A program made the position numbers and the translations under genes. The notes below the pieces were generated by a model. It saw only the letters and a list, made by a program, of their open reading frames with translations, was not told the DNA's origin and did not search any database. 64,000 bases of DNA. Source: a virus. This document shows, one piece after another, positions 7,570-53,671 of the stretch. The DNA lies in IMG/VR virus record IMGVR_UViG_3300037882_003535, positions 7,810 through 71,809 of that record. The stretch is one strand, 5' to 3'. Each line of letters begins with the position of its first letter. Positions within the stretch are counted from its first letter, which is position 1.

Positions 7570-9393
7570 ATGTCTAATTTAGTCTTGAAAGAGGCGTTTA
7601 ATCAATATGATGTCGAACGAGTTTTGAAGGCTCGGCTCGACAACCTGAAGCGTCTGGGTGACGCGGACAAGTCGAGCTTAGGAGGACAGCAACTTTCTGG
7701 CTCGATCGCCTTGGCATCGGCTGCTACGATCGCGTTCCTTGGTGCCCAAGCATTCGCCTTCCCGGTGGGATGCTTGGGTTTATTCATGTATGGTCAGGCG
7801 ACTGTGCGTGAGGGAATGCTGACGGGCAGTCTTCGTCCCATCCCACTGTCTGGAGCTGATGTCGGTGCCATTGCGCTCTCGTCCGATCGATCGACTAGAG
7901 GTGATGTCGAGCGGAAGCGGGTGACGGGCTACAACTACCTGAATGCCTTAGAAAAAGCGGAATATTCGTTGATCAATAATTTCGGGCGAGTTGTGGCGCA
8001 GGTTTTACAGCGCATGAACCCATCCGATCGATCGGCGGAATGGGTTCGGGTTGTCGATATTTTTGATGACCTTTATGGCGATTACATCAAGGAATCCCCT
8101 AGAGCTTTGATTGGTCAGTTGGACCCCAAGGAGTTGTTTTCGTATCTCACAGCGTCTCCTGAAAAGTTGCATCAATTGGCGACGGAAGCAGCAGCCGAGG
8201 CTATCGTTGATGTCCCCGCCCAAGCGGTAAAGCCCTCCGTTTTTAAGTCGTCGGTTTTGGCAGCTCCGACAACGATTGCTGATGCAGTAGTTCAGCACCA
8301 AAACGCCTCGCCAACGGGATTGATGCGAGATCCTGTGAGTCCGATCGTCACTCAATCCAATATGGTAGCCGTCGCTCCCTCTTCTGCTGTAATTTCCGGG
8401 AACAAAGCAGAAATCCATAATTTCGCGATCGATTTAGGCCGCAATCCTCAGTCTGCGATAATCCTTGGGACACCTGGGGCTGGGAAAGGGATTAGCATTT
8501 CTGTCGCAATTCGTGAATTGCGACAGAAATATCCCTCGGTTAAAATCATGATGGTCGATCCAAAAGGCGACCCAAAAGAGCGAGGATACTGGAATTCTCA
8601 TGTCGATATTCTAGAGAGTAGAGACATTTTAATGATGAATCCGATCGCAGCGGCGGAATGGATGATGAACTGCGTTGAAGCGTATCGAAATCTTCCAGCT
8701 CCCAAACTCCTTATTTGGGATGAGCTACTCTCGACAAACTCCACATTAAAGGCGGCTCATAATCCAAACCCCAAAAGGGACGCAGAGCCGTTCCCTTGCC
8801 TAACTGATTTTCAGCACTTTATTTCGACACATCTTTCTCTCGGCCCATCAAGAGGCATTTGGGTTTGGGGGATGTCGCAGTCTGCCAATCTTAAGGATTT
8901 GGGGCTGAATGGTGGTCAATTAAGTACCTCTCGATTGATTGCTCTAGTTAGCCCTACGAATCGTGGGGCCGTTGAAGCTTACTGGTCTACGAACGCGATC
9001 GTCGCGCCAAAGGGTGGATATGACGAGATTGAATCTTTGATGGCAATGTCACCAGTCGGGCGGGCCGTTTACGATGGTAAATTCAAACGCTGGTATCCGG
9101 TGGCAAAACTGGAAAATCATTCAGGTTTCGATCGGGACAATGCTGATTGGAATAATCTCGACGCATCAGCCCCGATCGCCCCTCAACCCCAAGAATCCAC
9201 TTGGGTTGCTGAAGGCCGATCGGAAGGTTCTGCTGAGTGGGATTTGCTGATGCAGTCGATCGCGGCTCAAGCATTAATTTCGTCAGGACTCGATCGGCAA
9301 AATCTAGTTCACGCTGCAAAGTTGGCGAAGGAGCTGGACGAAAACGGTCAGAGAAACGAAGCTTTTGAACTATTGAAACAGCAACTGCCATGA
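7570..9393 (+). CDS. membrane-anchored FtsK/HerA/VirD4-family P-loop ATPase
   Basis: N-terminal hydrophobic segments; Walker A ILGTPGAGKG, VDPKGD, Walker B LLIWDE, GMSQS motif. Confidence 0.8.
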   Translation: MSNLVLKEAFNQYDVERVLKARLDNLKRLGDADKSSLGGQQLSGSIALASAATIAFLGAQAFAFPVGCLGLFMYGQATVREGMLTGSLRPIPLSGADVGAIALSSDRSTRGDVERKRVTGYNYLNALEKAEYSLINNFGRVVAQVLQRMNPSDRSAEWVRVVDIFDDLYGDYIKESPRALIGQLDPKELFSYLTASPEKLHQLATEAAAEAIVDVPAQAVKPSVFKSSVLAAPTTIADAVVQHQNASPTGLMRDPVSPIVTQSNMVAVAPSSAVISGNKAEIHNFAIDLGRNPQSAIILGTPGAGKGISISVAIRELRQKYPSVKIMMVDPKGDPKERGYWNSHVDILESRDILMMNPIAAAEWMMNCVEAYRNLPAPKLLIWDELLSTNSTLKAAHNPNPKRDAEPFPCLTDFQHFISTHLSLGPSRGIWVWGMSQSANLKDLGLNGGQLSTSRLIALVSPTNRGAVEAYWSTNAIVAPKGGYDEIESLMAMSPVGRAVYDGKFKRWYPVAKLENHSGFDRDNADWNNLDASAPIAPQPQESTWVAEGRSEGSAEWDLLMQSIAAQALISSGLDRQNLVHAAKLAKELDENGQRNEAFELLKQQLP

Positions 9394-15629: not shown

Positions 15630-17567
15630 GTGCGAATTAATGATGTCGATCGATTGATTGGGGAACTAGAGAAAGCGTTTGATTTGGCAGATGAGAGCGA
15701 TAGTAAGCCTGCGCTGCGATCGGCTTATATTGCGGATGTGATGGCGAATGGGGGAAAGGGTTTTTTAGAGCGTGTGCGGCGGTATGGGGCGACGGATAAG
15801 GGTGAACCGTTGCGGATGCCTCAATGGTTTTGTGAGTTGCTGGAGTTGTTGGGCGATTTTCGGATTCCGCATGTCCTGACTACGGGTTGTAGCCAATTGG
15901 GGAAGACACAATCGAACACTCTACTGCTAACGGATTTAGTCGTTCATGGGAAATTGAATAGCGCGTGGTTTTATGCGAGCCGATCGAGTCGAGATCTGAA
16001 TGTCCCGGAACAGTTTTACCCGGTGGTAAGCGAATGGCTCGATCGGTTGTCTACGGAGGTTGGCTCTTGCCTGGGGGCGGAGGCCGATCGGCAAAATATG
16101 TCGCGATACCAGATTGACGGGACGACGGCGATTTTTAGCTATGCCAACACCTCCAAGCCAACCCCTAGTCGATCGGGTTTGGCGTCGGCGGGTGGAGCTG
16201 CGGTGTCATTTACGGCGAATGTGAATTTCTATGAGGAACGATCGCAGTGGATTCCGGGAACGGCTGATCCGTTGATTCGGCGGTTGGATGCGTCATTGGT
16301 GCCGACTCGCCCCATTCGTGAACTGGGAACGCCGGGGGCAGGACAGGGTATTGAGGTGGAGGTCGATCGGGCTTCGCGGTGGTTTTATCCGCATTTTGAA
16401 TGCGAACACTGTGGTGAAGTGCAACCGCTTGACCCCAAGGGATGCCTCCTGAAGCGCTTCGATCGGCGGGATGTTACCGGAAAGACGATCGCGGGGTATT
16501 TCTCGGTTTCAGGCCGTCCCCATGAGTGGCACCATACGAATCCCAATGACCTGATCGAATCGGCTTATTTTGGATGCGCTCATTGTGGGACGAAGATTTC
16601 GGATGAGGTGCGCGATCGATCGTGGATGCAATGCCGGAAAACTGGGGTAACGCTGCGAAATTTCCTAGATTATTTCCCCGGCGACGACGGACGGATGAAG
16701 GTTGCGATCCATTTGTCGCCGCTGTGCCGCATGACACAAAACAATCTTGCTGCGGAATTGATTCGGGGTGGCATCGAGGCACTGAGACCGGAGGATTGGC
16801 AACAGCAGGGCTTGGGGCATCCGTCCGAAACCTCGACTACGAGTGTTTCGATCGACATGATTAAAGCCTCGATCGCTGCGACGGCTCCCGATCGCAAACC
16901 CACGGTGACGATCGCGGGTGTAGACAAAGGGCGTGGTGAGGATTGGTTATGGATTATGGACGTGCATTTTCCCGAGAATTGGGATCGGATGCCTGTGTCT
17001 GAGGCGATCGAGCAGGCGATTCGGGTGGTGAAGTTCGGGGCGGATGTGGTCCGATCGAGTATTCCTGAGTTGCTCGATCGGTATGGCGTTGGGTATGGGT
17101 TGATTGATAACGAACCCGATCGGGCTGATGCGTCGGCGCTCTGTGGGCGAACGGTGTTGGAGATGGCCAACCAGGTAGGCGGGCTGAAGGATGTGACGGC
17201 GAAGACGATCGTTAAAGACGGCGGAATTGAATACCCATGCTGGAACCTCCGAAATGAGAAGTTTTTGAAACAGGTTTTGACGAATTTCACCACGGTTTCA
17301 GAACTCGACCACCTCCCGCTCTATCGACTGCCTGATGAGTGGGATAAGTGGATTGGGGTGCAGACTGAACGATCGCCCGTGCGACATCTCACGGGGCCAT
17401 CCTGCGACCCGGACACAGGCACCTGGAAGCGTGGGGCGGGAAACATTGACGACCTGTATTATGCGGCATTATTTGCGGAGGCGGCATTGTATTTGTGGGT
17501 TCTGAATAAGCCTTTTGTCCAGTTCTCATTCAAGTCGGCTGGGCGACGCGAGACGACACGATTTTAA
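15630..17567 (+). CDS. terL: terminase large subunit (GpA-like)
   Basis: Walker A GCSQLGKT, FYEE, GTP, CxxC pairs (CEHC, CAHC), nuclease AGVDKG and DDLYYA. Confidence 0.85.
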   Translation: MRINDVDRLIGELEKAFDLADESDSKPALRSAYIADVMANGGKGFLERVRRYGATDKGEPLRMPQWFCELLELLGDFRIPHVLTTGCSQLGKTQSNTLLLTDLVVHGKLNSAWFYASRSSRDLNVPEQFYPVVSEWLDRLSTEVGSCLGAEADRQNMSRYQIDGTTAIFSYANTSKPTPSRSGLASAGGAAVSFTANVNFYEERSQWIPGTADPLIRRLDASLVPTRPIRELGTPGAGQGIEVEVDRASRWFYPHFECEHCGEVQPLDPKGCLLKRFDRRDVTGKTIAGYFSVSGRPHEWHHTNPNDLIESAYFGCAHCGTKISDEVRDRSWMQCRKTGVTLRNFLDYFPGDDGRMKVAIHLSPLCRMTQNNLAAELIRGGIEALRPEDWQQQGLGHPSETSTTSVSIDMIKASIAATAPDRKPTVTIAGVDKGRGEDWLWIMDVHFPENWDRMPVSEAIEQAIRVVKFGADVVRSSIPELLDRYGVGYGLIDNEPDRADASALCGRTVLEMANQVGGLKDVTAKTIVKDGGIEYPCWNLRNEKFLKQVLTNFTTVSELDHLPLYRLPDEWDKWIGVQTERSPVRHLTGPSCDPDTGTWKRGAGNIDDLYYAALFAEAALYLWVLNKPFVQFSFKSAGRRETTRF

Positions 17568-17684: not shown

Positions 17685-18020
17685 TCAGTCGATCGAAAGT
17701 AAGGCTGTTGCCTTCGATATTGCACTCCGAAGCTTCTGATTTTCGATTGCTAGGCGCTGACACTCGATCGTTAGTCGATCGTTTTCGGATTGAAGTCGAT
17801 CGACGCTAATTGTAGCTTTGTCCAGTTCTTGGGGCCTGAATTTATTGACGAGTTGCAGGCGGTTTTTGAGGTTGCATTTTTGCAACATGTGGTGAACATG
17901 AGTTTCAACTGTCCGTTGCGTGATATGCAATTTGAGTGAAATATCGGAGTTTGAAAGCCCGTCAGAGAGAAGCCTCAAGACTCGTTTTTCTGCGGGTGAG
18001 ATTTCGTCAGGGTTTTTCAC
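17685..18020 (-). CDS. LuxR/GerE-type HTH + coiled-coil regulator
   Basis: ISPAEKRVLRLLSDGLSNSDISLKLHITQRTVETHVHHMLQK; start uncertain. Confidence 0.8.
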   Translation of the reverse strand: MKNPDEISPAEKRVLRLLSDGLSNSDISLKLHITQRTVETHVHHMLQKCNLKNRLQLVNKFRPQELDKATISVDRLQSENDRLTIECQRLAIENQKLRSAISKATALLSID

Positions 18021-18087: not shown

Positions 18088-20943
18088 ATGGCTCGACTGA
18101 TTCACCGAGGCGAATTCGCCAGTATTCGCAATAGCTTAATCATTCCGACCTATGGCGGAGGTCGCCTGACCCCACAGGATACGGCGTATCTGGAGCATGG
18201 TGGTGGGCGATATCATGCGCTGGATGCATTGCTTGATGTGTTTCGAGATGCCCATGCGGGAGCCGTAGCGCAGCAGCGGATTGGGGCCGTAATTGGGCGA
18301 GAGTGGAAGCTGAAAGAGGGCGGCGAGAGTGCGATCGATCTCAAGGCGCGCGATCTCTGCAAGGCGCAGCTCGACGCATTAGAAATCCCTTCCGCCTCCG
18401 ATGACGATAATGCGATCTATTCGCTGAATACTGGATTAGATGCGGCTTGCACCAATCTGCTGTGGGCGACGTTCTTTGGCATGTCTGCGAGTGAGGCAAT
18501 CTGGGATCAGCAAGGGAAAGAGGTGATTCTGCAAGATTTACGATCGCGGGATGTTCGGCGGTTTGCGTGGGTGGCGGGGGAGTCGAGTGGGTACAAATTG
18601 CGGCTACTGACTCGCGAAAATCCCTATGATGGGATCCCCGTCCCTGCACGTAAGTTTTTGATTCATCGTTTTTTCTCATTGCCGTTGGAAGATCCGTATG
18701 GTGTGGGGATTGCGGCGCGGTTGTTTTATCCCGTTTTTTATAAGCGCCATGCGATTAAGTTTTGGTTGATTTTTGCTGAGAAATGGGCCTCTCCGACCGC
18801 GATCGCGAAGCATCCGACGGATGCGAATGAGAAGCAGGTGGATGACCTGCTGGAGATGATTAACGCGATCGCCTCTGATACGGGGGTGGCCATTCCTGAT
18901 ACGGTATCGCTTGATTTCTTGAAGGCTCCGGGCGGTGCGATCGACTCCTACGAAGGGCTGAAAAAATTTTGCAATGAGGAAATCTCAAAGATTGTCATTG
19001 GGCAGACTGCGACGGTGGATCAGTCCCAAGGAGGCGGGAGTCGAGCAAGAGACCAAGTTGCTGACGGTATTCGGGTGGAACTGGCTAAATCTGATTCTGA
19101 CCTGCTCAGTGGGACCATTAACCGACTGCTCGCGTGGATGACTTGGGCGAACTTTGGTCCCGACGCGAAGGCTCCTCGACTATGGCGTGAGTTCCCCGAA
19201 TTAGAAAATAAGGTCAACCGATCGGAGGAAGCTACCGTAATTTCGACGCTGACGAATGCAGGATTCAAACCTAAAAAAGAATGGGTTGAAAATCGTCTTG
19301 ATGTTGAACTGGAAGACGTACAGGATGCGATCGCGCCGGAGAACCCAGACACTCCACCGGATATTGGTAAATTGCTCGGTGGTGAGCCTGCACCGGAGAA
19401 TCCAGAGGAAGCGATCGAGCCTCCTCCCGCTTTTGAAGAGGTGGAGTTTGGTGGGGTGTCGAAGGTTTTGAAGTGGAATGGGTTGGCGATCGGGCTTGAA
19501 GTAATGCCGGGTGAGTCTCGGTGGAAGGGGACGGGCCATGAGCGAACTCTGACGGCGGCTTATGGTCACATTCGTCTGCATCAAGGTAACGATGGTGAAG
19601 CATTGGATTGCTATGTATCGCCTGCGGTCTTGGATGAGGGTGGGAGCGATCGGATCTTCTTGGTGTCGCAGTTGGATGCGGCTGGGGCGTTTGATGAAGA
19701 GAAGTTGATGCTTGGGTATGCCGATGAGAAGGCGGCGCGATCGGCTTATCTGGCAGAAATGCCCAAACAGTTTTTCGGGGATATTGTCGAGCTTGAGTTG
19801 GAGGATTTAGAAGAATTTAAGCTCGATTTTGCGAAGACTCAGAAGAATTGCAAGAAGGGTTATTCGTGCGGGTTTAGCTGCATTCGGACAGCGTACAAGT
19901 GCAAGTCTCCCATGAAGGGGCAGGCTCGGAATTATGCTGATTATTTGGTTGGTGCGGTTAAGCGAATTGGTATTGAAAAGATGCCTCAACGCCACGCCTC
20001 GGATGCTCGCGCAATGGGCTTAGGGTTTGAGCATTCAACTACTGGGCAAGGAATTCTATTCCCGATCGCTCCGCTCTTGAAAGTTTCGGACAAACAGAAA
20101 GGTGAAGCGAAATTCACTCGAAGCTCAATTGAGAAACAGATTCTTAAACAAAAAGAACTCATTAAGAGTGAAACCGATCGCAAAGATCCGGATGCGAATC
20201 AAATCGCTAGAATGCAGCGAAGAATTAAGCGAATGCGCGATCGTGTCAAAGAATTGAAGGCAATAGAAGAAACGGGAGCCATCCCCCGATCGAGCCTTCG
20301 AGGGACTGAAATTGAAGTCCCGGCGAAACCCAAAGCGCCTAAATCAGACGTTCAAGCTCAAAGCGACAAAGTTAAAGCCAGTCTCGATCGTCAGGACGTT
20401 AAAGCCAAAAAAGAGGCTGATTTGGACCGACAGAAGCAGCAAGAGCAGAAGGACGCATTCGATCGATCTCAAGGTAAAGCAACCCGCGCTGAAGTGGTAG
20501 CGAAATTGCCTGATATTTTGAAGCCGTCTAAATTAACGAAGTCTTACGAAGACGCTCGTGATGAATGGTCTAAGGCTGTTCAGGACGGTTCTAAAACAAT
20601 GAAGGGAAAGAAGATTAAAGCTTCTGGCGATCGGGTGGAATATCTTGATTATGGGGGCGGTGTGGGCATTAGCTCAGTACAAGTCGGACGGACAACTGAG
20701 AAAGCTTTAATTGAAACGCCTACAGGTCAAATCATTGCCCGAATCCCGAAAAACATGAAGGCGACAGAGGCGGCTTTTGTTGCTTCTCAAGTATTGTCCA
20801 AGAATATCAAAGAAGGCTTGGCTAGTTCGGATAAAGGGACGAAAGCCGCTGCGGAAGAGTCGGTGCGATGGCTCCGTGATTTTGTGGACAAACGATCGAA
20901 AGGTCAACTGCTCGTCCCTCCGAAATACTCAGGAGAGGGCTAG
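18088..20943 (+). CDS. Mu gp29-like portal (DUF935) fused to an inorganic pyrophosphatase domain and a Cys-rich/basic C-terminal region
   Basis: PYGVG..ARLFYP..YK....FWLIFAEKW and CNEEISKIVIGQTAT (DUF935); YGHIR..GNDGEALDCYV and FDEEKLMLG (InPase). Confidence 0.85.
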   Translation: MARLIHRGEFASIRNSLIIPTYGGGRLTPQDTAYLEHGGGRYHALDALLDVFRDAHAGAVAQQRIGAVIGREWKLKEGGESAIDLKARDLCKAQLDALEIPSASDDDNAIYSLNTGLDAACTNLLWATFFGMSASEAIWDQQGKEVILQDLRSRDVRRFAWVAGESSGYKLRLLTRENPYDGIPVPARKFLIHRFFSLPLEDPYGVGIAARLFYPVFYKRHAIKFWLIFAEKWASPTAIAKHPTDANEKQVDDLLEMINAIASDTGVAIPDTVSLDFLKAPGGAIDSYEGLKKFCNEEISKIVIGQTATVDQSQGGGSRARDQVADGIRVELAKSDSDLLSGTINRLLAWMTWANFGPDAKAPRLWREFPELENKVNRSEEATVISTLTNAGFKPKKEWVENRLDVELEDVQDAIAPENPDTPPDIGKLLGGEPAPENPEEAIEPPPAFEEVEFGGVSKVLKWNGLAIGLEVMPGESRWKGTGHERTLTAAYGHIRLHQGNDGEALDCYVSPAVLDEGGSDRIFLVSQLDAAGAFDEEKLMLGYADEKAARSAYLAEMPKQFFGDIVELELEDLEEFKLDFAKTQKNCKKGYSCGFSCIRTAYKCKSPMKGQARNYADYLVGAVKRIGIEKMPQRHASDARAMGLGFEHSTTGQGILFPIAPLLKVSDKQKGEAKFTRSSIEKQILKQKELIKSETDRKDPDANQIARMQRRIKRMRDRVKELKAIEETGAIPRSSLRGTEIEVPAKPKAPKSDVQAQSDKVKASLDRQDVKAKKEADLDRQKQQEQKDAFDRSQGKATRAEVVAKLPDILKPSKLTKSYEDARDEWSKAVQDGSKTMKGKKIKASGDRVEYLDYGGGVGISSVQVGRTTEKALIETPTGQIIARIPKNMKATEAAFVASQVLSKNIKEGLASSDKGTKAAAEESVRWLRDFVDKRSKGQLLVPPKYSGEG

Positions 20944-20981
20944 CGATCGGGAACAATCCCGCAAACGCTAATCCCCTATTT

Positions 20982-21362
20982 ATGTCACAAGCTCTCCTCC
21001 CCGAACAATCCCAATTAGAAACCGCGATCGAGCGTCAGCTAATGCAGTCGTTAGGCGCTGCTGATTTTGCTGACGAGTTGCCCGCAAACCCCACGCCGGA
21101 ACAACTCGATAAAATGATTGTGCCGATGGTTCGGTACATCCTCCAAGCTGGCGAGAAGGGGTATAAGGACGGCATTGACGAGGTTACGGATAAGGATGGA
21201 AATCCCCCCAGTGCTGAGAATAACTGGCTTGTGGCCGATCGGGGGATTGAGGGGCTATTTATCGATCGGCGTCCGGGTGGCGATCGTACCTTTGAATTCG
21301 TTCTGGAAAACTCTGGGGATAATTGGGGCAAAAGTTTTCAGATGGTCTCTGGAGAGGCTTAA
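20982..21362 (+). CDS. hypothetical head-associated protein
   Basis: 126 aa between the portal and sigma factor; ADFADE motif after a short leader. Confidence 0.7.
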   Translation: MSQALLPEQSQLETAIERQLMQSLGAADFADELPANPTPEQLDKMIVPMVRYILQAGEKGYKDGIDEVTDKDGNPPSAENNWLVADRGIEGLFIDRRPGGDRTFEFVLENSGDNWGKSFQMVSGEA

Positions 21363-21369
21363 TCTATCC

Positions 21370-22098
21370 ATGACAACGTACAGCCAAAACTACGACCTAT
21401 TCTGCCAGTACCAAGCCGATCGCGATCGTAAGCTCCGAGACAAAATCTTTAAAATCAATGAAAATCTGATTCATTCTGTCATCAAAAAAATGACAAAGTT
21501 TGGATGGGAATATGATGACTTGTATCAGTGCGGGGCGATCGGTCTAGTGTTTGCGATCGATCGGTTTGACCCTAGCAACGGCGCGGCCTTCAGTTCCTAT
21601 GCCGTTCCTTATATTCGGGGTGAGATTTTGCGGTATTTCCGCGATCGGTTTGGACTTGTTAAACCTCCAAGACCGCTTTATGAACTCTATTGTCGTGGTC
21701 AGAAATTCATTGAAAAGCACCAACAGACGACGGGACGAATCCCTTCCGAAGTGACGATCGCCTGTGGGCTAGATGTCGATTTAGCCGAATGGCGGGATGC
21801 TGTTTTTGCAAATACTAAACCCGATTCTTTGGATGTGGCAATCCCTGATTCTCTACGAACTCGGATTGATTATGTCCCATCTCCGGAGAAAGAGGATATT
21901 CCTACGATTGAGATCGAAGAATTGTTGAATTCAATCGATCCAAAATTTTCGATGATTCTTCGCGAGATCTACTGGAAGAATCGCACGGCCAAGTCGATCG
22001 CTAAAGACTTTGGAGTTTGGCCAATGACGATTACCCGTTGGAAACAGTCGGCTTTGCGAAAGCTGCGGGTTGCGATCGGGAACCATCCCATAAATTAA
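21370..22098 (+). CDS. group-3 sigma-70 factor (SigF/SigJ-like)
   Basis: DLYQCGAIGLVFAIDRFDPSNGAAFSSYAVPYIRGEILRYFRD; region-4 HTH. Confidence 0.9.
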   Translation: MTTYSQNYDLFCQYQADRDRKLRDKIFKINENLIHSVIKKMTKFGWEYDDLYQCGAIGLVFAIDRFDPSNGAAFSSYAVPYIRGEILRYFRDRFGLVKPPRPLYELYCRGQKFIEKHQQTTGRIPSEVTIACGLDVDLAEWRDAVFANTKPDSLDVAIPDSLRTRIDYVPSPEKEDIPTIEIEELLNSIDPKFSMILREIYWKNRTAKSIAKDFGVWPMTITRWKQSALRKLRVAIGNHPIN

Positions 22099-22110
22099 GC
22101 TTTTAGCCCT

Positions 22111-23334
22111 ATGAATGTGCTCGATCGTCTTCCTCAATTGTGGGGAGAACCCATTGAATTTCGTGAACAGCCATCTGCTCTGGTTGAACTGTCCGATCGT
22201 GTGACGGCATTGGAGACGATCGACTTTGCTGGGAAGAAGGGATCGAAGGTTACTCAGAAAAAGAACTGTGTTAAAGGTTCAAGTTGCGGTTTTACTTGCA
22301 TTCGGGCTGGGGCTGTGTGTCGATCGGAGATGAAGGGTAAGGAAAAAGAGTTTGCGGGTTATCTGAAGAAATCAGCCGGGAGCACGAAAGGCAAGGCAAA
22401 GGTTGAACCTGTTGAAAAACCTCCCGTGGTGGCGAAGAAACCGAAGAAGGATGATATCCCTGATGTGCAGAAGGAGACGATCGCGGCTAAGGTCGATCGG
22501 AAGAGAGATGGAACCCATACGGATATCCCTGATGGAAAAATTCCGCCTAGTCCTAGGGTCGCTTATTCATGGAAAAAAGATGCGGGCGGAGTTGAGCGCT
22601 ACTACAGAAACGAAATCAGCCCAGATGGCAAACGAAATCTTATTGAAATATCTGGGCAAGAGCTTAAATCTGTCGTTAAAGCTGAATTTAACAGTGATTT
22701 CAAGCTAGCTAAGTTTGGGCGAGATGTCCGCCCTGAGTCTGAAACTAAAAAAATTGAAGAAAAAGTACGATCGAGTCAGATCTCTGCGATCAAGAAATTA
22801 TCAGGACTTTCTGAAGATGAGGCAAGAGCGGCTATTGACGCAATTAAAAAGTACTCAGAGCCTGAGGGTAGCGTTATTAGCTATGGCTCAATCAGAAATG
22901 TTCAGAGGGGAATTTTAAAGACAGCAGATGGGCGAGATCTGACGAAAGCAGAGCTATCCAAGGTTGAATCTACGACTAAATCAATTAATCGGTATCTTGA
23001 GAAGATGCCCTCTTTTGATGGGGTCGTTCATCGTGGAATGTCATTCGATTCAAAAGAGGATCGCGATGCATTTGTCTCGAAAATTTCAGGGGGGTACTCA
23101 TTGGAGGCAATGTCTAGCTTCTCAAGCTCAAAAAATACAGCAAAAGAGTTTGCCTCTCAATCTGGGTCCGGTGTTCTTTTTACTGTAAAGAATAAATCCG
23201 GCGTATCAATCAAGAGGCTTAGTGAAGTAGAAGAAGAGAATGAAGTTCTCGTACCGAAAGATACTAGATATAGAATTGTGGGGAAACCCAAGAAAGTAGC
23301 CAATGTTCTAGTCGTTGAAATGGAAGAATTCTAA
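22111..23334 (+). CDS. ADP-ribosyltransferase (R-S-E, exoenzyme/VIP2-like) with an N-terminal Cys-rich module
   Basis: VHRGM, MSSFSSS, EEENEVL catalytic motifs. Confidence 0.85.
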   Translation: MNVLDRLPQLWGEPIEFREQPSALVELSDRVTALETIDFAGKKGSKVTQKKNCVKGSSCGFTCIRAGAVCRSEMKGKEKEFAGYLKKSAGSTKGKAKVEPVEKPPVVAKKPKKDDIPDVQKETIAAKVDRKRDGTHTDIPDGKIPPSPRVAYSWKKDAGGVERYYRNEISPDGKRNLIEISGQELKSVVKAEFNSDFKLAKFGRDVRPESETKKIEEKVRSSQISAIKKLSGLSEDEARAAIDAIKKYSEPEGSVISYGSIRNVQRGILKTADGRDLTKAELSKVESTTKSINRYLEKMPSFDGVVHRGMSFDSKEDRDAFVSKISGGYSLEAMSSFSSSKNTAKEFASQSGSGVLFTVKNKSGVSIKRLSEVEEENEVLVPKDTRYRIVGKPKKVANVLVVEMEEF

Positions 23335-23549
23335 TGAAAAGAAAAAGTAATCGATTGGTTGACCGTCCTGAGACTGCCGCAATTAAACCGTTGCCTTCTG
23401 ACAAAAAGCTTGTAATAGAAGATCTAAATATGACCCTTGACGAGTATTTGAACTCCCTGGGATTAGATGATGACCCTTTGCCGAAAAACAATCACAGGCT
23501 TGAAATAGGGGCGGATGACAGCCCTACGGATCTCCCTGAGGATCTTTAG
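23334..23549 (+). CDS. small acidic protein coupled to the ART (candidate immunity)
   Basis: 71 aa, TAATG coupling. Confidence 0.55.
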   Translation: MKRKSNRLVDRPETAAIKPLPSDKKLVIEDLNMTLDEYLNSLGLDDDPLPKNNHRLEIGADDSPTDLPEDL

Positions 23550-23551
23550 CA

Positions 23552-23956
23552 ATGAAGCTTGATATCACGATCGAAAACCTCTCCATAACCCAAAAGACGA
23601 TCGCAGAACTTCGGGGACGGGTGCAGAACCCTGAACCTGCGATGCGATCGATCGGGGAATATTTCAAAAAACGGGTGGACGATCGGTTTGCGGCGGAAGG
23701 GCCGAATTGGAAAGCTCCAACCGATCGATATCGGCGATGGAAATCCAAAGCGGGCTATGGCGCGAAAACGCTGACACTTACCGGAGCGCTGCGGGCATCG
23801 ATCGTAGCGCAGACGACGGGCGATAGTGTTTCGATCGGAACTGATATTCCTTACGCCGAACATCAAAACCGAGTTCGCCCATTCATGGAAGCGGACGAAC
23901 GGGACCAACGGGAATTCACTGATATTTTATTTGACCATTACACAGGAAACGGCTGA
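23552..23956 (+). CDS. phage virion morphogenesis protein (Mu gpG-like)
   Basis: RFAAEGPNW, LTLTGALRASI, IGTDIPYAEHQ, RPFM. Confidence 0.85.
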   Translation: MKLDITIENLSITQKTIAELRGRVQNPEPAMRSIGEYFKKRVDDRFAAEGPNWKAPTDRYRRWKSKAGYGAKTLTLTGALRASIVAQTTGDSVSIGTDIPYAEHQNRVRPFMEADERDQREFTDILFDHYTGNG

Positions 23957-25200
23957 TGAGCGACATCTCGATCGAAATCCTCCCCATCGGGACTCACACC
24001 TCTGCCAGCGGCTATAAATTGGCGGCGACGGCGGCGGACCTGAAGGAACTGGTGGCGACCTTCGATCGGGAGGTCTTTCGTCCGCCGTTGATTATTTCTC
24101 ACGATACCAAGGGGTTGCAAGACGAGGCGATCGCAAACTCAGAGTTTGCCTTCGGAGTCCCTAAAGCGTTGAAGGTGGTGGGGAAGAAATTGAAGGCAAT
24201 CTTTGACCCAAAGGAAGTCTCTCCCGAATTCCAGCAATGGGTCAAGGATCGCAAACTCACCAGCGTCTCCAGTAGCCTGTACCTTCGCGATTCCCCCAGC
24301 AATCCAAACCCCGGCAAACTCACCCTGCGCCACATTGCTGCGCTGGGTAAAACGCCCCCCGCCATCAAGGGCATGGAATCTCTTCAAACTGCATTCAACT
24401 GCAACGAGTTTGAAGAGGGCGTTCAAATGTTCACCATTCAATTTAGTGCCCCAATGAGTACCACCGAAACCGCCGACTTTAGTTACTCCGATCGTCTGAT
24501 CTCAAACATTTTGCAACGACTTCGTGAGCATCTCATCGAAACAGCCGATCGCGAAACGGCGGATTCGATCGTGCCATTGGGTGAGCTTCAAAGCATTACC
24601 GAAATGGATATGTTTGGTGCTCGGGAAATCGATCGATTGCGCGATCGGATCTATGCGCTGGAAAGTTCAGAGCGATCGGAATCTGCGGGAATAATCCCGG
24701 CATATTCGGAAATTGAAGCAGAAGCTGTAAACGAACCTGAAATTGATATGGCAGATTTTGAAGAAAAAGAATCTCGGTTAGCCGAGATCGAAGAAAAGAT
24801 CGCCGCAGGGGAAACTCGTTTGCGGCGGACGGAATTCCTGGAATTTTGCGAGACGATCGCGAAGGGTAAAATCCTTCCCGGCGTTGCAAGCTTCGACGAC
24901 ATGGCTGATTTCATGGAGCATTTGCATTCCATTGAATCCAATGTTGATTTTGAAGAGCATGGCGGACCTACTCCGCTCGACTTCTTCAAGACGATGATCG
25001 GCAAACTTCCCAATGCGATCGAGTTTGGCGAATTGGCAGGTGGCAAACCTCCGACTGCTGTAGCTCCGACCGTGAATGGAACCTTTGACGCATCGGAACT
25101 TGACGCCGATCGAGCCATCCGAGACTATTGCGCTCAAAATGGCCTAGACCCTGAAACCGACTACGCGAGAGCAATGACAGCTCTAGGAATGACGTACTAA
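23956..25200 (+). CDS. Mu gpI-like prohead protease/scaffold
   Basis: IEILPIGTH, PLIISH, SVSSS, LRHIAALGKTPPAIKGM. Confidence 0.85.
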   Translation: MSDISIEILPIGTHTSASGYKLAATAADLKELVATFDREVFRPPLIISHDTKGLQDEAIANSEFAFGVPKALKVVGKKLKAIFDPKEVSPEFQQWVKDRKLTSVSSSLYLRDSPSNPNPGKLTLRHIAALGKTPPAIKGMESLQTAFNCNEFEEGVQMFTIQFSAPMSTTETADFSYSDRLISNILQRLREHLIETADRETADSIVPLGELQSITEMDMFGAREIDRLRDRIYALESSERSESAGIIPAYSEIEAEAVNEPEIDMADFEEKESRLAEIEEKIAAGETRLRRTEFLEFCETIAKGKILPGVASFDDMADFMEHLHSIESNVDFEEHGGPTPLDFFKTMIGKLPNAIEFGELAGGKPPTAVAPTVNGTFDASELDADRAIRDYCAQNGLDPETDYARAMTALGMTY

Positions 25201-40758: not shown

Positions 40759-41186
40759 TTGAGAAACAATTGCAGGCAGGCGACAGCCTTCAGACTCTAT
40801 TGCTGGACCAACTCGACGACATCGACAAATACAACCCAAATTGGCGATCGATCGCAGACTCCGCAGGCATTAATCCTCTAAAGTCGCTCCCGATCGGTGA
40901 CATCGTTCAGATCCCAGAATTAGATCAATTGGTGACGCAGGCTGATGGACTGCTCGGGGGCGTTTCGGCGGGGTTGAACCAAGCTAAAGGGCAAATCTCC
41001 GAGGTCTTTAATCAAGTCGCCCAGTATCTCCCACCTGGATATGCCGCAGAAGCCCAGAAGCTATTAGGAGAGGTGAACGGAGCCTTTGGGCAGGTGGAGA
41101 CGATCCTGGGGCAAGGTAAGGCGGTGCTCGGGAAAGCTCGGGACTATAAGGGCGAAGTCGCTAAATTAGTGGATTGGTTACTGTGA
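40755..41186 (+). CDS. LysM-like baseplate protein (gpX-like)
   Basis: QAGDSLQTL...WRSIADSAGINPLKSLPIGDIVQIP. Confidence 0.7.
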   Translation: MIEKQLQAGDSLQTLLLDQLDDIDKYNPNWRSIADSAGINPLKSLPIGDIVQIPELDQLVTQADGLLGGVSAGLNQAKGQISEVFNQVAQYLPPGYAAEAQKLLGEVNGAFGQVETILGQGKAVLGKARDYKGEVAKLVDWLL

Positions 41187-43702
41187 TGGGTAGTTGGATT
41201 GCCCCGATCGCACGGGTCAGAATTGCGGATGACGTTTTCATGACGGGTGACGGATACCTCAAGTCGGTGTCCGTCACTTTGAGCGAAGATGCGCGGGCGT
41301 CGCGGTGTAAATTTGAACTTTACGATCCGGGTCTTGAGATTGCGTCTCAATACTTCGAGATGAGTTTTCGGGATGGAGGGATTCAGGTTCCGGCTGATTT
41401 GCTGGAAGACCCGAGTAAGGCTAGCGCAGGTGGTGGGACGATTTCGATCGCGGGGTCGGAGTCCTTGGGGGGATTCTCCGGTGGAACCGCAGCAGAACAA
41501 GAGCTTGCGATCGTCCGGGAATGCCTGAAGCAGGGCGTTACAGATAAGGCCCAGATTGCCTACATTTTGGCCACGGCAAAGCATGAATCTGACCATTACA
41601 AAACACTGACGGAGTATGCGAGCGGATCGCAGTATGAAGGCCGATCGGACCTAGGAAACACCCAACCCGGCGACGGAGTGAGATTCAAAGGCCGAGGTTA
41701 CGCCCAGGTCACGGGGCGAGTCAATTACGAGAAATACAGCAAAATCCTTGGGACGGATTTTATTGCGAATCCGACGGAAATGCAGAAGCCAAATGTCGCA
41801 CTTTTCACCCTAGTCCATGGGATGAAGACCGGGCATTTCACGGGGAGGCCGATCGGGGACTATGTGGGCGGTGGGAAGCAGGATTTCTATAATGCTCGGC
41901 GAGTGGTCAATGGGACGGACTTGGCGGGTCAGATTGCTGGTTATGCCGATACTTACCTTGGACGGGTTGATGGGCTGGTTCAGCAGGCAGGCGGCTCGGC
42001 CACTCCTCCCGCAGCTCCACCAAAGACTCAGCAACAGCAGGCGGCGGCCACTCCACCACCCGTCAAAGATGCTTCAGTTACCAAGCCTGAAGAGGTCTCT
42101 AAAAAGGGGACGGAAATCATCGTCGAACTGGGCTATCAAATCGCGCAGCTCGTGAATTTTCATTTCATCCACACAGGGACCACAACCCAAGGCCGATCGC
42201 CTGACTCTACTGGATTTGAAGGGCAGTCGATCCGATGGCTGATGACGCGGCGGACGAAGAACACGGCCTACGCAAATATCACCCTGAAAGAGCTTGCGGA
42301 GAAAGTTTGCAAGTCTTACGGCTTCAAGCTCGACATGGAAGGCGACGGGCCAAAGTATGAGCACTTGGACCAAACCGGATTGACGGATTATGAGCTGCTT
42401 TTGAGAGAATGCCGGGGAATTGGCTATAGCATCCGTGAGGACAAAGACACGCTGATCCTGAAGCCCTATCGCCCTGAATTCACGGGCTTTGTCATCACAG
42501 CAGATATTCTGCTGCATCCCATTTCGTTCGCGGACAAAGCCTCGAAGGACATGCAAGGTTCTCCATCGGCTCCTGCAAGTGATTCGGCTACGCCGTCGGG
42601 GGATTCTAAATTCTCGATCGATCGCGTCACGGGAGTCGCGAAACAGGTGAAGCTTGAAGACTCGACGGGCATGGGGAAAGCCCTTGCAAATACCTCGACG
42701 GCGCAGTTCGACTTATCCAAAGCAACGATCGGACCCGTGGTCAAACCTTCCGCAGCCCTCGCCGCATCAAACCCAGTCGCGGCGATGGGAAGTCCCGTGA
42801 AAAAGATCGGGGGGACACCTGCCCCAGAATCGGCGGCGAAACCTGCGGAAGGGGCTGCGAGTACTGGAGATGCGGTGACGGGATTACCTAAGCAGGAAAT
42901 CGGGGCGATCGATTTGGCGGATGGTCGGGCGGAGGCGAGTGCGATCGCAGATGAGTCGAAGCGGGTGAAGGGCTATGAGTCTTCGGCGACGGTGCTGACG
43001 ACAGATGCAGTGTTGGCGATCGCGCCGGGTTCGATTATTGGGATATCTCGGAACATCGTCCCGGAGACTTTTGCGACAGAGTGGAGAGTGGGGCAGGTGA
43101 CGCACTCGCTTTCCCAAGGGAAGATGACCACGACGCTGAATTTCTATAAGCCACAGAAGCAAAAGGCGGCGAGTGGGAGTATTAGCATTGCGGGGTCTGA
43201 AGTGCTGGGCGGGAATGTGCCAGCGGGGAAACTACAAAATCCAATGCCGGGAACGCCTCGGGGAACGCCTTTCGATCCTGCGGGGGTTATCCGTGGAAGA
43301 CAGCACCTTGGCATTGATATGTCGGGCGGGTCTCAGAACAAGATTTTGGCGGCGGAAAGCGGGAAGGTCATCGATGCAGAAAATTCTTGCGTGGTGGGCG
43401 ATCGGGGATGCGGGGGCGGTTTTGGGAACCTCGTCTACATTCAGCATGAAGGGGAGTGGGCGGGGTACGTTACCCGATATGCCCATTTGAGGACAGGTTC
43501 GGTCACGGTGAAAATCGGGGACGCGGTGAAAAAGGGGCAGGTCATTGGGGTGGAGGGCGATACTGGGTCCAGCGGGGGCGACCATCTTCACTTTGAAGTG
43601 GTAAAAGGCGGGCAGCGGATTGATCCAGAGCCATTGTTTTGCCCTCCGCCCTCCGGAACCTATGGTCAGGGGGCTGGAACGCCCTTGAGAAACAAGTGCT
43701 AA
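41186..43702 (+). CDS. baseplate hub with an inserted GH19 lysozyme domain and a C-terminal M23 peptidase
   Basis: AYILATAKHES, GDGVRFKGRGYAQVTGRVNY (GH19); DQTGLTDYELL (hub); HLGID, YAHL, HLHFE (M23). Confidence 0.88.
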   Translation: MGSWIAPIARVRIADDVFMTGDGYLKSVSVTLSEDARASRCKFELYDPGLEIASQYFEMSFRDGGIQVPADLLEDPSKASAGGGTISIAGSESLGGFSGGTAAEQELAIVRECLKQGVTDKAQIAYILATAKHESDHYKTLTEYASGSQYEGRSDLGNTQPGDGVRFKGRGYAQVTGRVNYEKYSKILGTDFIANPTEMQKPNVALFTLVHGMKTGHFTGRPIGDYVGGGKQDFYNARRVVNGTDLAGQIAGYADTYLGRVDGLVQQAGGSATPPAAPPKTQQQQAAATPPPVKDASVTKPEEVSKKGTEIIVELGYQIAQLVNFHFIHTGTTTQGRSPDSTGFEGQSIRWLMTRRTKNTAYANITLKELAEKVCKSYGFKLDMEGDGPKYEHLDQTGLTDYELLLRECRGIGYSIREDKDTLILKPYRPEFTGFVITADILLHPISFADKASKDMQGSPSAPASDSATPSGDSKFSIDRVTGVAKQVKLEDSTGMGKALANTSTAQFDLSKATIGPVVKPSAALAASNPVAAMGSPVKKIGGTPAPESAAKPAEGAASTGDAVTGLPKQEIGAIDLADGRAEASAIADESKRVKGYESSATVLTTDAVLAIAPGSIIGISRNIVPETFATEWRVGQVTHSLSQGKMTTTLNFYKPQKQKAASGSISIAGSEVLGGNVPAGKLQNPMPGTPRGTPFDPAGVIRGRQHLGIDMSGGSQNKILAAESGKVIDAENSCVVGDRGCGGGFGNLVYIQHEGEWAGYVTRYAHLRTGSVTVKIGDAVKKGQVIGVEGDTGSSGGDHLHFEVVKGGQRIDPEPLFCPPPSGTYGQGAGTPLRNKC

Positions 43703-52863: not shown

Positions 52864-52975
52864 AGTTTTAAGAAAGATTTGTCTTTTTAGGTGGATCCTA
52901 GGGGTTTTCTCTATTCTTTTTTTGCATTAAGAAATGCTATATAGGCATCATCCCCAGTTTCTTAATCTTCTTTTT

Positions 52976-53671
52976 ATGATTTGTGATTTTTTGAGCTTGC
53001 AGGCGTATCGGGCGAGTGGGCGAGTGGATCAGGAACGGCAGTGTAAGGAGGCTCTGGTCAAGGCGAATATCGGGCTGGTGATTAAGATCGCAGCGACGTT
53101 TCACAAGTCGTCGGAGGCTCCGATCGCTGACCTGAAGCAGGAAGGTGCAATCGGCCTTTTGAAGGCGATCGACGGCTTTGACCCGAGTAAAGGAATGAAG
53201 TTTTCGAGCTATGCGGTCCCGAAAATTCGGGGGGAGATTTTGCATTACCTGCGCGATCGTGCGCCATTGATGCGGGTACCCCGACCTTACTGGGATGCCT
53301 ATAAGGCTGTGGCGGCGGATCAGAAAAGCCTTGAGAAACAGGGATATATGCTGTCGATGAAGTCGATCGCATTAATGAAGGGGAAAACGGAGGAGGAGTG
53401 GCGAGAAATTTCGATCGCTTGCACGGCGAGAATCTCGGATGCGGCGATCAATCTGCCTGCGGGGAGATCGGAAGAGTCGGTGGATGCGGGCGAGGTCTTT
53501 GGGGCGTTGTCAAAGTTGTCGGATCGAGATCGATCGATTTTTGTCAGCTTTGCAATGAGGTCAGAGGGGCGGTCTGTGGCGGATATCGCGGTGCATTATG
53601 GCGAGTCGGAGACAGATGTTCAGGATGCGATCGATCGATCGCGGCAAATTCTCAAAGCTCAACTGGTATAA
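52976..53671 (+). CDS. group-3 sigma-70 factor (SigF/SigJ-like), second copy
   Basis: DLKQEGAIGLLKAIDGFDPSKGMKFSSYAVPKIRGEILHYLRD. Confidence 0.9.
   Translation: MICDFLSLQAYRASGRVDQERQCKEALVKANIGLVIKIAATFHKSSEAPIADLKQEGAIGLLKAIDGFDPSKGMKFSSYAVPKIRGEILHYLRDRAPLMRVPRPYWDAYKAVAADQKSLEKQGYMLSMKSIALMKGKTEEEWREISIACTARISDAAINLPAGRSEESVDAGEVFGALSKLSDRDRSIFVSFAMRSEGRSVADIAVHYGESETDVQDAIDRSRQILKAQLV

Follow-up and report, generated by a model that had tools for sequence, protein, structure and literature searches.

Two copies of a cysteine-rich module in one phage genome

We analyzed a stretch of viral DNA of 64,000 nucleotides (positions 7,810 to 71,809 of IMG/VR record IMGVR_UViG_3300037882_003535, hereafter the window), in which a short cysteine-rich module occurs twice, once in the tail of the portal protein and once near the N-terminus of a stand-alone ADP-ribosyltransferase (ART). 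The source virus record (71,809 bp) has direct terminal repeats and is rated complete; the phage is a myophage with a Mu-like head gene module. The genes are found in the order TerL, portal polyprotein, 126-amino acid (aa) open reading frame (ORF), sigma-70 factor, module-ART, 71-aa ORF, and Mu G-like gene, followed by the Mu I-like protease/scaffold, major head protein, adaptor, sheath, tube, and baseplate genes. Table 1 shows the coordinates. The longest ORF of the portal gene begins at 17920, upstream of the MARLIH start used in the table. By its domain content the predicted portal protein is a polyvalent protein: Portal_Mu, InPase, the module, and a 305-aa tail are joined in one polypeptide encoded beside TerL. 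The product of the second gene can be classified from its translation as an R-S-E ADP-ribosyltransferase (Alt/VIP2/C3-like). Its core scores above the curated Pfam cut-offs (ART, 34.7 bits versus 22.3; ADPrib_exo_Tox, 27.4 bits versus 23.4), and the R, S-x-S, and E-x-E motifs can be read as HRG, SSFSSS, and EEENE. Two ORFs (the 126-aa ORF and the sigma factor) separate the portal gene from the ART gene. No MuF domain (PF04233, PF06152) was matched in the ART or portal proteins, nor in the whole genome at E<=1.

A sequence-only reading of this DNA had quoted one peptide from each protein, and both are reproduced exactly by translating 19825-19950 (portal) and 22222-22368 (ART). When the whole portal ORF was compared with the whole ART ORF by BLASTP, the sole significant segment was portal aa 622-676 against ART aa 31-85, with 24 out of 55 residues identical (E 2e-11). 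The next-best segment reached only E 0.57, and the regions downstream of the two modules are therefore unrelated, as that reading had stated. It had also placed both copies just after a DFA tripeptide; this is correct, and DFA is an instance of a family-wide phi-(D/E/N)-F-A motif (FA motif). At the DNA level the two copies show 73% mean column identity over 227 columns, which argues that they do not stem from a recent duplication. No third copy was found in the window by a six-frame regular expression (C-x4-7-CG[FYW]xC[ILVM][RK]), nor in the whole 71,809-bp genome by protein search.

Table 1. Features of the portal-ART region and the adjoining genes (positions in the window)
Feature	Position	Strand	Match or remark
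TerL	15630-17567		Adjoins portal gene
Portal polyprotein gene, 951 aa from MARLIH (P0008)	18088..20943	+	Portal_Mu E 7e-84; InPase E 4e-27
Mu-type portal domain	18229..19302	+	Pfam Portal_Mu, aa 48-405 of P0008
InPase (pyrophosphatase-like) effector domain fused to portal	19462..19815	+	aa 459-576 of P0008
Module copy 1: LEEFK-LDFA, basic linker, four Cys, helix ...YADYL	19807..19947	+	FA motif 19822-19833; Cys 19849-19902
Portal-specific extension past module, VGAVKRIGIEKMPQRHASDARAMGLG	19948..20025	+	Kept in related portal P0009 (alignments)
Portal-tail cargo: K-rich coiled-coil-like region and C-terminal domain	20026..20940	+	Matches P0006; no Pfam family matched
126-aa ORF directly 3' of portal gene	20982..21362	+	No family match
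Sigma-70-family factor gene, between portal and ART genes	21376..22098	+	Sigma70_r2 E 8.5e-15; phrog_351 E 5e-47
Stand-alone module-ART gene, 407 aa	22111..23334	+	Occupies the slot of MuF in Mu-like phages
Acidic leader, ART aa 1-36	22111..22218	+	Common to close relatives P0003, P0005-P0007; resembles leaders of module ORFs in L005
Module copy 2: IDFA (22219-22230), basic linker, Cys53/59/63/70 (22267-22320), helix aa 73-88	22204..22374	+
ADP-ribosyltransferase catalytic core, R-S-ExE type	23053..23295	+	Pfam ART, ADPrib_exo_Tox
71-aa ORF, C-terminal half acidic, start overlapping ART stop codon	23334..23549	+
Mu G-like virion morphogenesis/neck protein gene	23552..23956	+
Mu I-like prohead protease/scaffold gene	23956..25200	+	phrog_976 E 3e-53; homologue alignment

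The module family and its exchangeable partners

A profile made from 8 copies was searched against 1.84 billion proteins (cluster representatives) and matched 190 cluster representatives at E<=1e-3, 17 of them at E<=1e-10. Of these matches 150 were listed, and the family counts given out of 150 concern the listed matches. The module family is rare, real, and statistically solid. Recent duplication and chance similarity were both ruled out as the origin of the two window copies by the BLASTP match, the DNA divergence, and the family-wide profile matches. In a sample of the cyanobacterial phylum the module was present in 1 out of 301 genomes, that one being the centre genome itself, and thus the family is rare and not a common prophage feature. 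Searches of IMG/VR for related loci with a single N-terminus and with the 8-row profile confirmed none, and a feature search of the ESM Atlas gave no usable match. The Cys core was matched by no curated model of Pfam, PHROG, or NCBIfam, and no Pfam family is common to most members in tallies of 36 and 114 proteins. Two InPase-type PHROG matches stop at portal ORF aa 642-646, which is 7-11 residues into the module and before the Cys core.

The module is ~55 residues long and consists of an acidic stretch, phi-(D/E/N)-F-A, a basic linker of variable length (often RLKxAGNTKQKK), the Cys core, and a helix, in that order. The consensus of the core is C-x-KG-(Y/W)-(S/P)-CG-x-(S/T)-CI-x5-6-C, followed by x-x-L-x-GQAK-x-YA-(D/E)-WL. 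The four cysteines are invariant in alignments of 114, 38, and 42 sequences; in the 42 sequences C53, C59, G60, C63, and C70 (ART numbering) do not vary. In 103 out of 150 listed proteins the module lies within the first 60 aa, in 46 it is internal, and in none is it C-terminal; one protein (P0056) has no local match. Among the listed matches the module thus always precedes a variable region and never ends the protein. It is found either at the N-terminus of genes in virion clusters or directly after a capsid-interior carrier (portal, MuF, or prohead protease). Seven phage-type proteins (P0010-P0013, P0125, P0138, and P0151) carry 2-3 modules per polypeptide. We counted P0056, a DX-module Cys-repeat protein, as a false positive. 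In the small proteins P0091 and P0129 the N-terminus resembles a signal peptide, C-x5-CG-x2-CI-x6-CH occurs as two repeats, and no Pfam family was matched; the two may represent a distinct secreted Cys-motif family whose core spacing is shared with the module or arose by convergence. We regard these two as peripheral and leave them outside the interpretation, and they are included in the position, downstream-group, and leaderless counts.

The FA motif was found in 106 out of 147 members, 5-15 residues upstream of the first cysteine (23 residues in one). Mean charge is -2.9 in the 12 residues before the motif, +4.2 in the linker, and +3.0 from the first to the fourth cysteine (C1 to C4). The motif is lacking in 42 proteins, of which 27 have an N-terminal Met and reach C1 within 25 residues. 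About 20 proteins begin M-basic-C1 without leader or FA motif (two signal-peptide proteins and four L-E-F-K/E variants discounted), and such a start is roughly the N-terminus that would be left by a cut after F or A. The variable distance from FA to C1 and the existence of leaderless proteins suggest that the leader-plus-FA part and the knuckle-plus-helix part are separable. An acidic-phi-(D/E)-F-(S/A) stretch also occurs 3' of the protease domain in aligned Mu I-like proteins, and a similar motif is present at the DnaJ/protease junction of locus L007. In an AlphaFold2 model of ART aa 1-100 (42 rows) the core is predicted to form a beta-hairpin (56-59, 62-65) and a helix (73-88), with pLDDT of 76-79 over aa 50-70. 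The core offers the four conserved potential ligands of a zinc knuckle or ribbon, and the invariant cysteines would fit metal binding.

The regions that follow the module are highly variable. Five proteins emerged from the 16 candidates of a search with ART aa 30-90; all retain the N-terminal ~90 aa (leader MNVLDRLPQLWGEP... and module) and the five end in five different C-termini. P0004 ends in an ART, P0003 and P0005 in two different regions with a repeated winged-helix-like segment, and P0007 in an HExxH region. In P0006, a stand-alone protein, the C-terminal region and the window portal tail (P0008) show 62% identity over 381 columns (E 8e-150). Similarity is lost after ...KYLYSATGQ in P0006 and P0007, and ~40 aa further on in P0003-P0005. 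When the portal copy was the query, 102 candidates yielded two proteins, the portal of the window itself and a relative, P0009. P0009 has the same portal-InPase-module arrangement as the window but a HExxH tail, and is encoded on the same 67-kb contig as P0007; the HExxH tails of the two are paralogous (E 4e-20). The P0006/P0008 and P0007/P0009 matches indicate that the same cargo hangs on the portal or on a stand-alone gene, with the module as the left boundary in both. As judged from these alignments, cargo has moved between portal tails and stand-alone genes.

Family-wide, BLAST sorts the 142 downstream regions that reach 40 aa or more into 57 similarity groups. The downstream Pfam matches are ART/ADPrib_exo_Tox (5), ART-PolyVal (2), GNAT (5), DnaJ (5), DUF3626 (5), Pkinase (2), and Hva1_TUDOR (2), together with single cases of lipase/alpha-beta hydrolase, C39 peptidase, M90 peptidase, ParB_N, and intein. 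The largest group (21 out of 142 regions) carries HExxH in 21 of 21 members. A constant module with variable C-termini, as read from the two window copies, is therefore real and widespread, as seen in the ART relatives, in the 57 groups, and in the cargo swaps between portal and stand-alone genes. Upstream of the module, a Mu-type portal domain was detected by jackhmmer in 13 of the 150 listed proteins and InPase in 4, Pfam Portal_Mu is present in 11 of 36 long proteins, and Phage_Mu_F in 2+2 of the 150 (Pfam). The sequence-only reading had called the module MuF-independent; this is true of the present genome, which has no PF04233 or PF06152 match, and does not extend to the family, with Phage_Mu_F in 4 of the 150 listed. 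Several shorter proteins open with a homologue of the pre-module portal region and are probably portal fragments. In many portals (P0014, P0015, P0024, P0040, P0063, and others) we also observed a conserved segment of ~80 aa (...LYxxLPxxDFAExMGxAxAxAELAGRYEV...) between the Portal_Mu domain and the module, which is probably the portal C-terminal (crown) region beyond the Pfam model.

Genomic context and possible function of the module

Loci with the module were gathered with a degenerate DNA pattern that covers the Cys core and GQ, from IMG/VR (9), species-representative genomes (10), and metagenomes (14), and the ORF maps of the 33 loci were compared with the window proteins to recognize virion genes. 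All 10 loci of the genome set lie in four cyanobacterial metagenome-assembled genomes (MAGs): Trichocoleus, Jaaginema, Chroococcidiopsis, and a Leptolyngbyaceae. A virion gene was recognizable in 25 out of 33 loci; 14 of these have head genes, and the other 11 are limited to neck or tail genes. Neither missing head linkage nor a constant partner, two of the outcomes that the sequence-only reading had named as fatal to it, was found in these 33 loci and 57 downstream groups. Portal-module fusions are present in L017 and L030, and a module gene lies directly 3' of the portal gene in L030 and L031. Other carriers are seen in L021, with the order MuF(54-176)-module(267-313)-C39 peptidase, in L016, with protease domain-module-cargo and a separately encoded scaffold, and in L019, with protease domain-module-cargo-scaffold. 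Two to four module genes are found in 10 out of 33 loci. The largest module array seen is that of L029 (2271-8001), with four module ORFs (283, 558, 235, and 220 aa) and ORFs of 74 and 531 aa between them, downstream of an adaptor-like gene. In a more distant phage, L005 (4431-7994), and in L032, the portal (444 aa) is unextended, InPase is a separate ORF of 357 aa, and a module-ART gene lies between; this arrangement looks like the unfused state of the window's portal polyprotein.

The module probably marks cargo carried in the phage head. Portal C-termini face the capsid interior, and Grimaud reportedly found in 1996 that the Mu portal is processed by the gene I protease. Since the module lies behind established capsid-interior carriers and is repeated within polypeptides, a junction, processing, or handle role fits at least as well as an address. 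We favor, with about an even chance of being right, the view that both proteins contain a conserved junction ('handle') module of ~55 residues that starts each swappable effector cassette inside the heads of cyanobacterial myophages with Mu-like head genes, and that acts through FA processing and a Cys handle. The acidic stretch and phi-(D/E)-F-A would be the docking or cleavage site for a Mu I-like prohead protease, which would free the cargo from its carrier or leader inside the procapsid; the product of 23956..25200 is the candidate enzyme. The basic four-Cys beta-hairpin and helix would stay on the cargo, probably with bound Zn, and may tether it to the packaged DNA or the portal channel so that cargo and DNA exit together at infection. 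For this phage such delivery might involve a separate ART and as many as twelve InPase-plus-tail cargos borne by the portal.

A number of observations weigh against this junction/handle model. Eight out of 33 loci have no recognizable virion gene (three of these are <=2.4 kb), and in 11 loci the module gene lies among neck/tail genes, for example between sheath and tube in L006, L008, L010, and L011, so head loading is not implied by position alone. The 33 loci are partly redundant: L025 equals L007 in length and ORF map, L032 is much like L005, the proteins of L006, L008, L010, and L011 are nearly the same, and such loci are not independent. The order in L007 is module-DnaJ-protease/scaffold and not carrier-module-cargo. 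The FA motif is low in information, and its occurrence at protease junctions is anecdotal. The cysteine spacing, C-x5-C-x3-C-x6(7)-C, lacks the CxxC pairs usual in zinc knuckles. The AlphaFold2 model as a whole is weak (mean pLDDT 63), and a Foldseek search of the PDB with it gave 0 matches at E<=0.001, a result of little weight given the small size and moderate confidence of the model. The proposed packaging, cleavage, and binding of Zn and of DNA are inferences. When ART aa 1-100 (42 rows) and a 240-aa prohead-protease domain (8 rows) were modelled as a complex, in a run without controls, the score was 0.00 and the mark 0.32, which speaks neither for nor against binding.

An address function is one of two leading readings, and taken by itself it seems to us rather unlikely. 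The module would here be an autonomous address that binds the portal, the scaffold, or the procapsid interior in trans and loads any fused protein independently of MuF. This would explain the N-terminal modules without a recognizable carrier in 103 of the 150 listed members, and it agrees with a complete genome that has no PF04233/PF06152 match and an ART gene in the MuF slot. Some members start at the basic Cys knuckle, so that this part alone must serve the stand-alone proteins, and the portal fusions could be read-through of adjacent genes, as the module genes right after the portal gene in L030 and L031 suggest. An address is redundant, however, behind a portal, MuF, or protease, and yet the module is kept there; second and third internal copies in single polypeptides are likewise unneeded for addressing, and the L019 arrangement, in which module and cargo separate the protease half from the scaffold half, has the look of a processing junction. 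As a tentative possibility, the ~55-aa four-Cys module might act, whether or not the acidic leader is present, as a portable MuF-independent signal that is enough to bring any protein into the heads of these cyanophages and to have it ejected with the DNA into the host. If true, the module would be a natural modular protein-delivery tag and a sequence marker of the injected-effector repertoire of this phage lineage.

Two further explanations dispense with packaging or with any biochemical role, and we consider each of them improbable. In the first, the module acts on the host side after injection, as a nucleic-acid- or ribosome-directed, zinc-finger-like targeting or refolding element. The module stays attached to very different enzymes, is strongly basic, and has a predicted hairpin-plus-helix mini-fold, all of which would suit such a role. 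Its linker A-R-L-K-x-A-G-N-T-K-Q-K-K (e.g. in P0015, P0028, and P0033) also seems to resemble, over A-R-L-K-x-A-G-N-T-K-Q, the N-terminus of ribosomal protein L27 (AHKKAGGSTRNGRDS). On the other hand, a host-side role leaves unexplained both the exact boundary position of the module at portal, MuF, and protease and the acidic leader and FA motif before it, and no known DNA/RNA-binding family was matched in Pfam or NCBIfam and none in the PDB fold search. In the second, the module is an evolutionary seam and nothing more, a linker conserved for homologous recombination of effector cassettes, like VENN in CdiA. The similarity breakpoints right after the module in P0006 and P0007 (and ~40 aa later in P0003-P0005), the exchange of cargo between portal and stand-alone gene, and the tandem arrays of module genes are all to be expected of a seam. 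Against it, the copies have diverged to 73% DNA identity while the Cys/Gly/Phe pattern was kept, and family-wide only protein features are invariant, which points to selection on the peptide and not on DNA identity. It is very improbable that the FA motif is cut by a host cysteine protease of the Prp type, which acts on the leader of ribosomal protein L27 and is used by staphylococcal phage 80alpha: the short leaders M-x2-4-L-D-F-A-x-K-K do resemble the L27 leader (...LQFF/ASKKG), but Peptidase_Prp (PF04327) has no match in the phage genome, nor in 4 out of 4 module-bearing cyanobacterial MAGs (which may be incomplete), and Prp-type processing is disfavored on this ground.

Neighboring genes and comparison with known systems

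Several neighboring genes deserve comment. The phage has two sigma-70-family genes, at 21376-22098 (phrog_351 E 5e-47) and 52934-53671 (phrog_351 E 2e-29), and homologues of the second adjoin module loci in L012 and L017. A segment of the 126-aa ORF (ELPANPTPEQLDKM...) weakly matches the ~80-aa N-terminal leader domain of P0047-type module proteins (10 out of 26 identical, E 8e-5), and this ORF may be a further accessory or carrier domain. The 71-aa ORF (23334-23549) may encode an antidote to the ART, or its chaperone, that acts during late expression; no such ORF was seen beside the ART-type module gene in L005. Farther downstream, an 842-aa tail/baseplate protein (41174-43702) contains lysozyme-like and metallopeptidase-like regions (PHROG endolysin and peptidase matches) and is probably a virion-associated cell-wall hydrolase.

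The first minutes of an infection are decided by the proteins that a phage injects along with its DNA. Outside T4, P1, N4, and the MuF family we know of no sequence signature by which injected proteins can be found. If the module marks packaged cargo, it would provide a searchable tag for dozens of candidate early cyanophage effectors (ARTs, acetyltransferases, kinases, J-domain proteins, and peptidases), a natural experiment in which the same cargo is carried on the portal, on the protease, or alone, and a small element suited to sufficiency assays of packaging and delivery. A recurrent junction behind portal, MuF, and protease is notable and directly testable.

Two known systems resemble parts of the proposed scheme. 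In phage T4, Alt is a head-carried ART injected with the DNA, and the capsid targeting sequence is a short N-terminal signal removed by the prohead protease. The T4 signal differs in that it has ~10 aa, a (L/I)xE cleavage site, and no Cys domain; we saw no sequence similarity, and the head genes here are Mu-like. Zhang and colleagues are said to have described in 2012 the pre-toxin junction motifs of polymorphic toxins, VENN of CdiA and DPxGL of Rhs. These are also short conserved elements between a delivery part and exchangeable toxin cassettes, and sometimes cleavage sites. The module differs from them in sequence, in being predicted as a folded Cys mini-domain, and in its context, which is a phage virion instead of a secretion system.

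Closer relatives are the polyvalent proteins (Iyer et al., 2017, PMC5512222; Iyer et al., 2022, PMC9503650). These two papers describe head-packaged effectors fused to MuF, to portals (including portal-InPase fusions), and to a capsid-processing peptidase, and propose that effectors fused to head proteins are packaged and injected; Alt is mentioned in the 2017 paper. The window portal is a portal-InPase fusion of the described kind, and HExxH peptidases are the commonest partner there as in our set (21 out of 142). The sequence-only reading had named the module its best candidate for an undescribed system. In view of these papers the system belongs to a known class, and what appears undescribed is the module itself: no Cys-rich junction module is described in the excerpts of PMC5512222, PMC9503650, and PMC5576092, of which the first and third have 0 occurrences of the word 'cysteine', and supplementary alignments could still list it.

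The MuF polymorphic toxins (Jamet et al., 2017, PMC5576092, in excerpt) share with the present proteins a constant N-terminal part, encoded beside the portal gene in the MuF system and two ORFs away from it here, variable C-terminal toxins that include ARTs, and presumed head packaging. In contrast to that system, the constant part here is ~55 aa with four Cys and not a MuF domain, the module also sits behind the prohead protease, portals, and MuF itself, cyanobacteria are the hosts, and no immunity gene is established. The window proteins are not members of the MuF family, because its defining domain was tested for and is absent; in our view they work like that family. SPP1 gp7, a MuF family member, is a portal-bound, DNA-binding minor head protein (PMC5576092, same excerpt). 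This protein, small and basic, is retained at the portal until infection releases it and may by analogy serve as a model for the proposed handle; the module has no homology to it. Cassette exchange of the polymorphic-toxin type would act on virion-internal proteins through a junction other than MuF.

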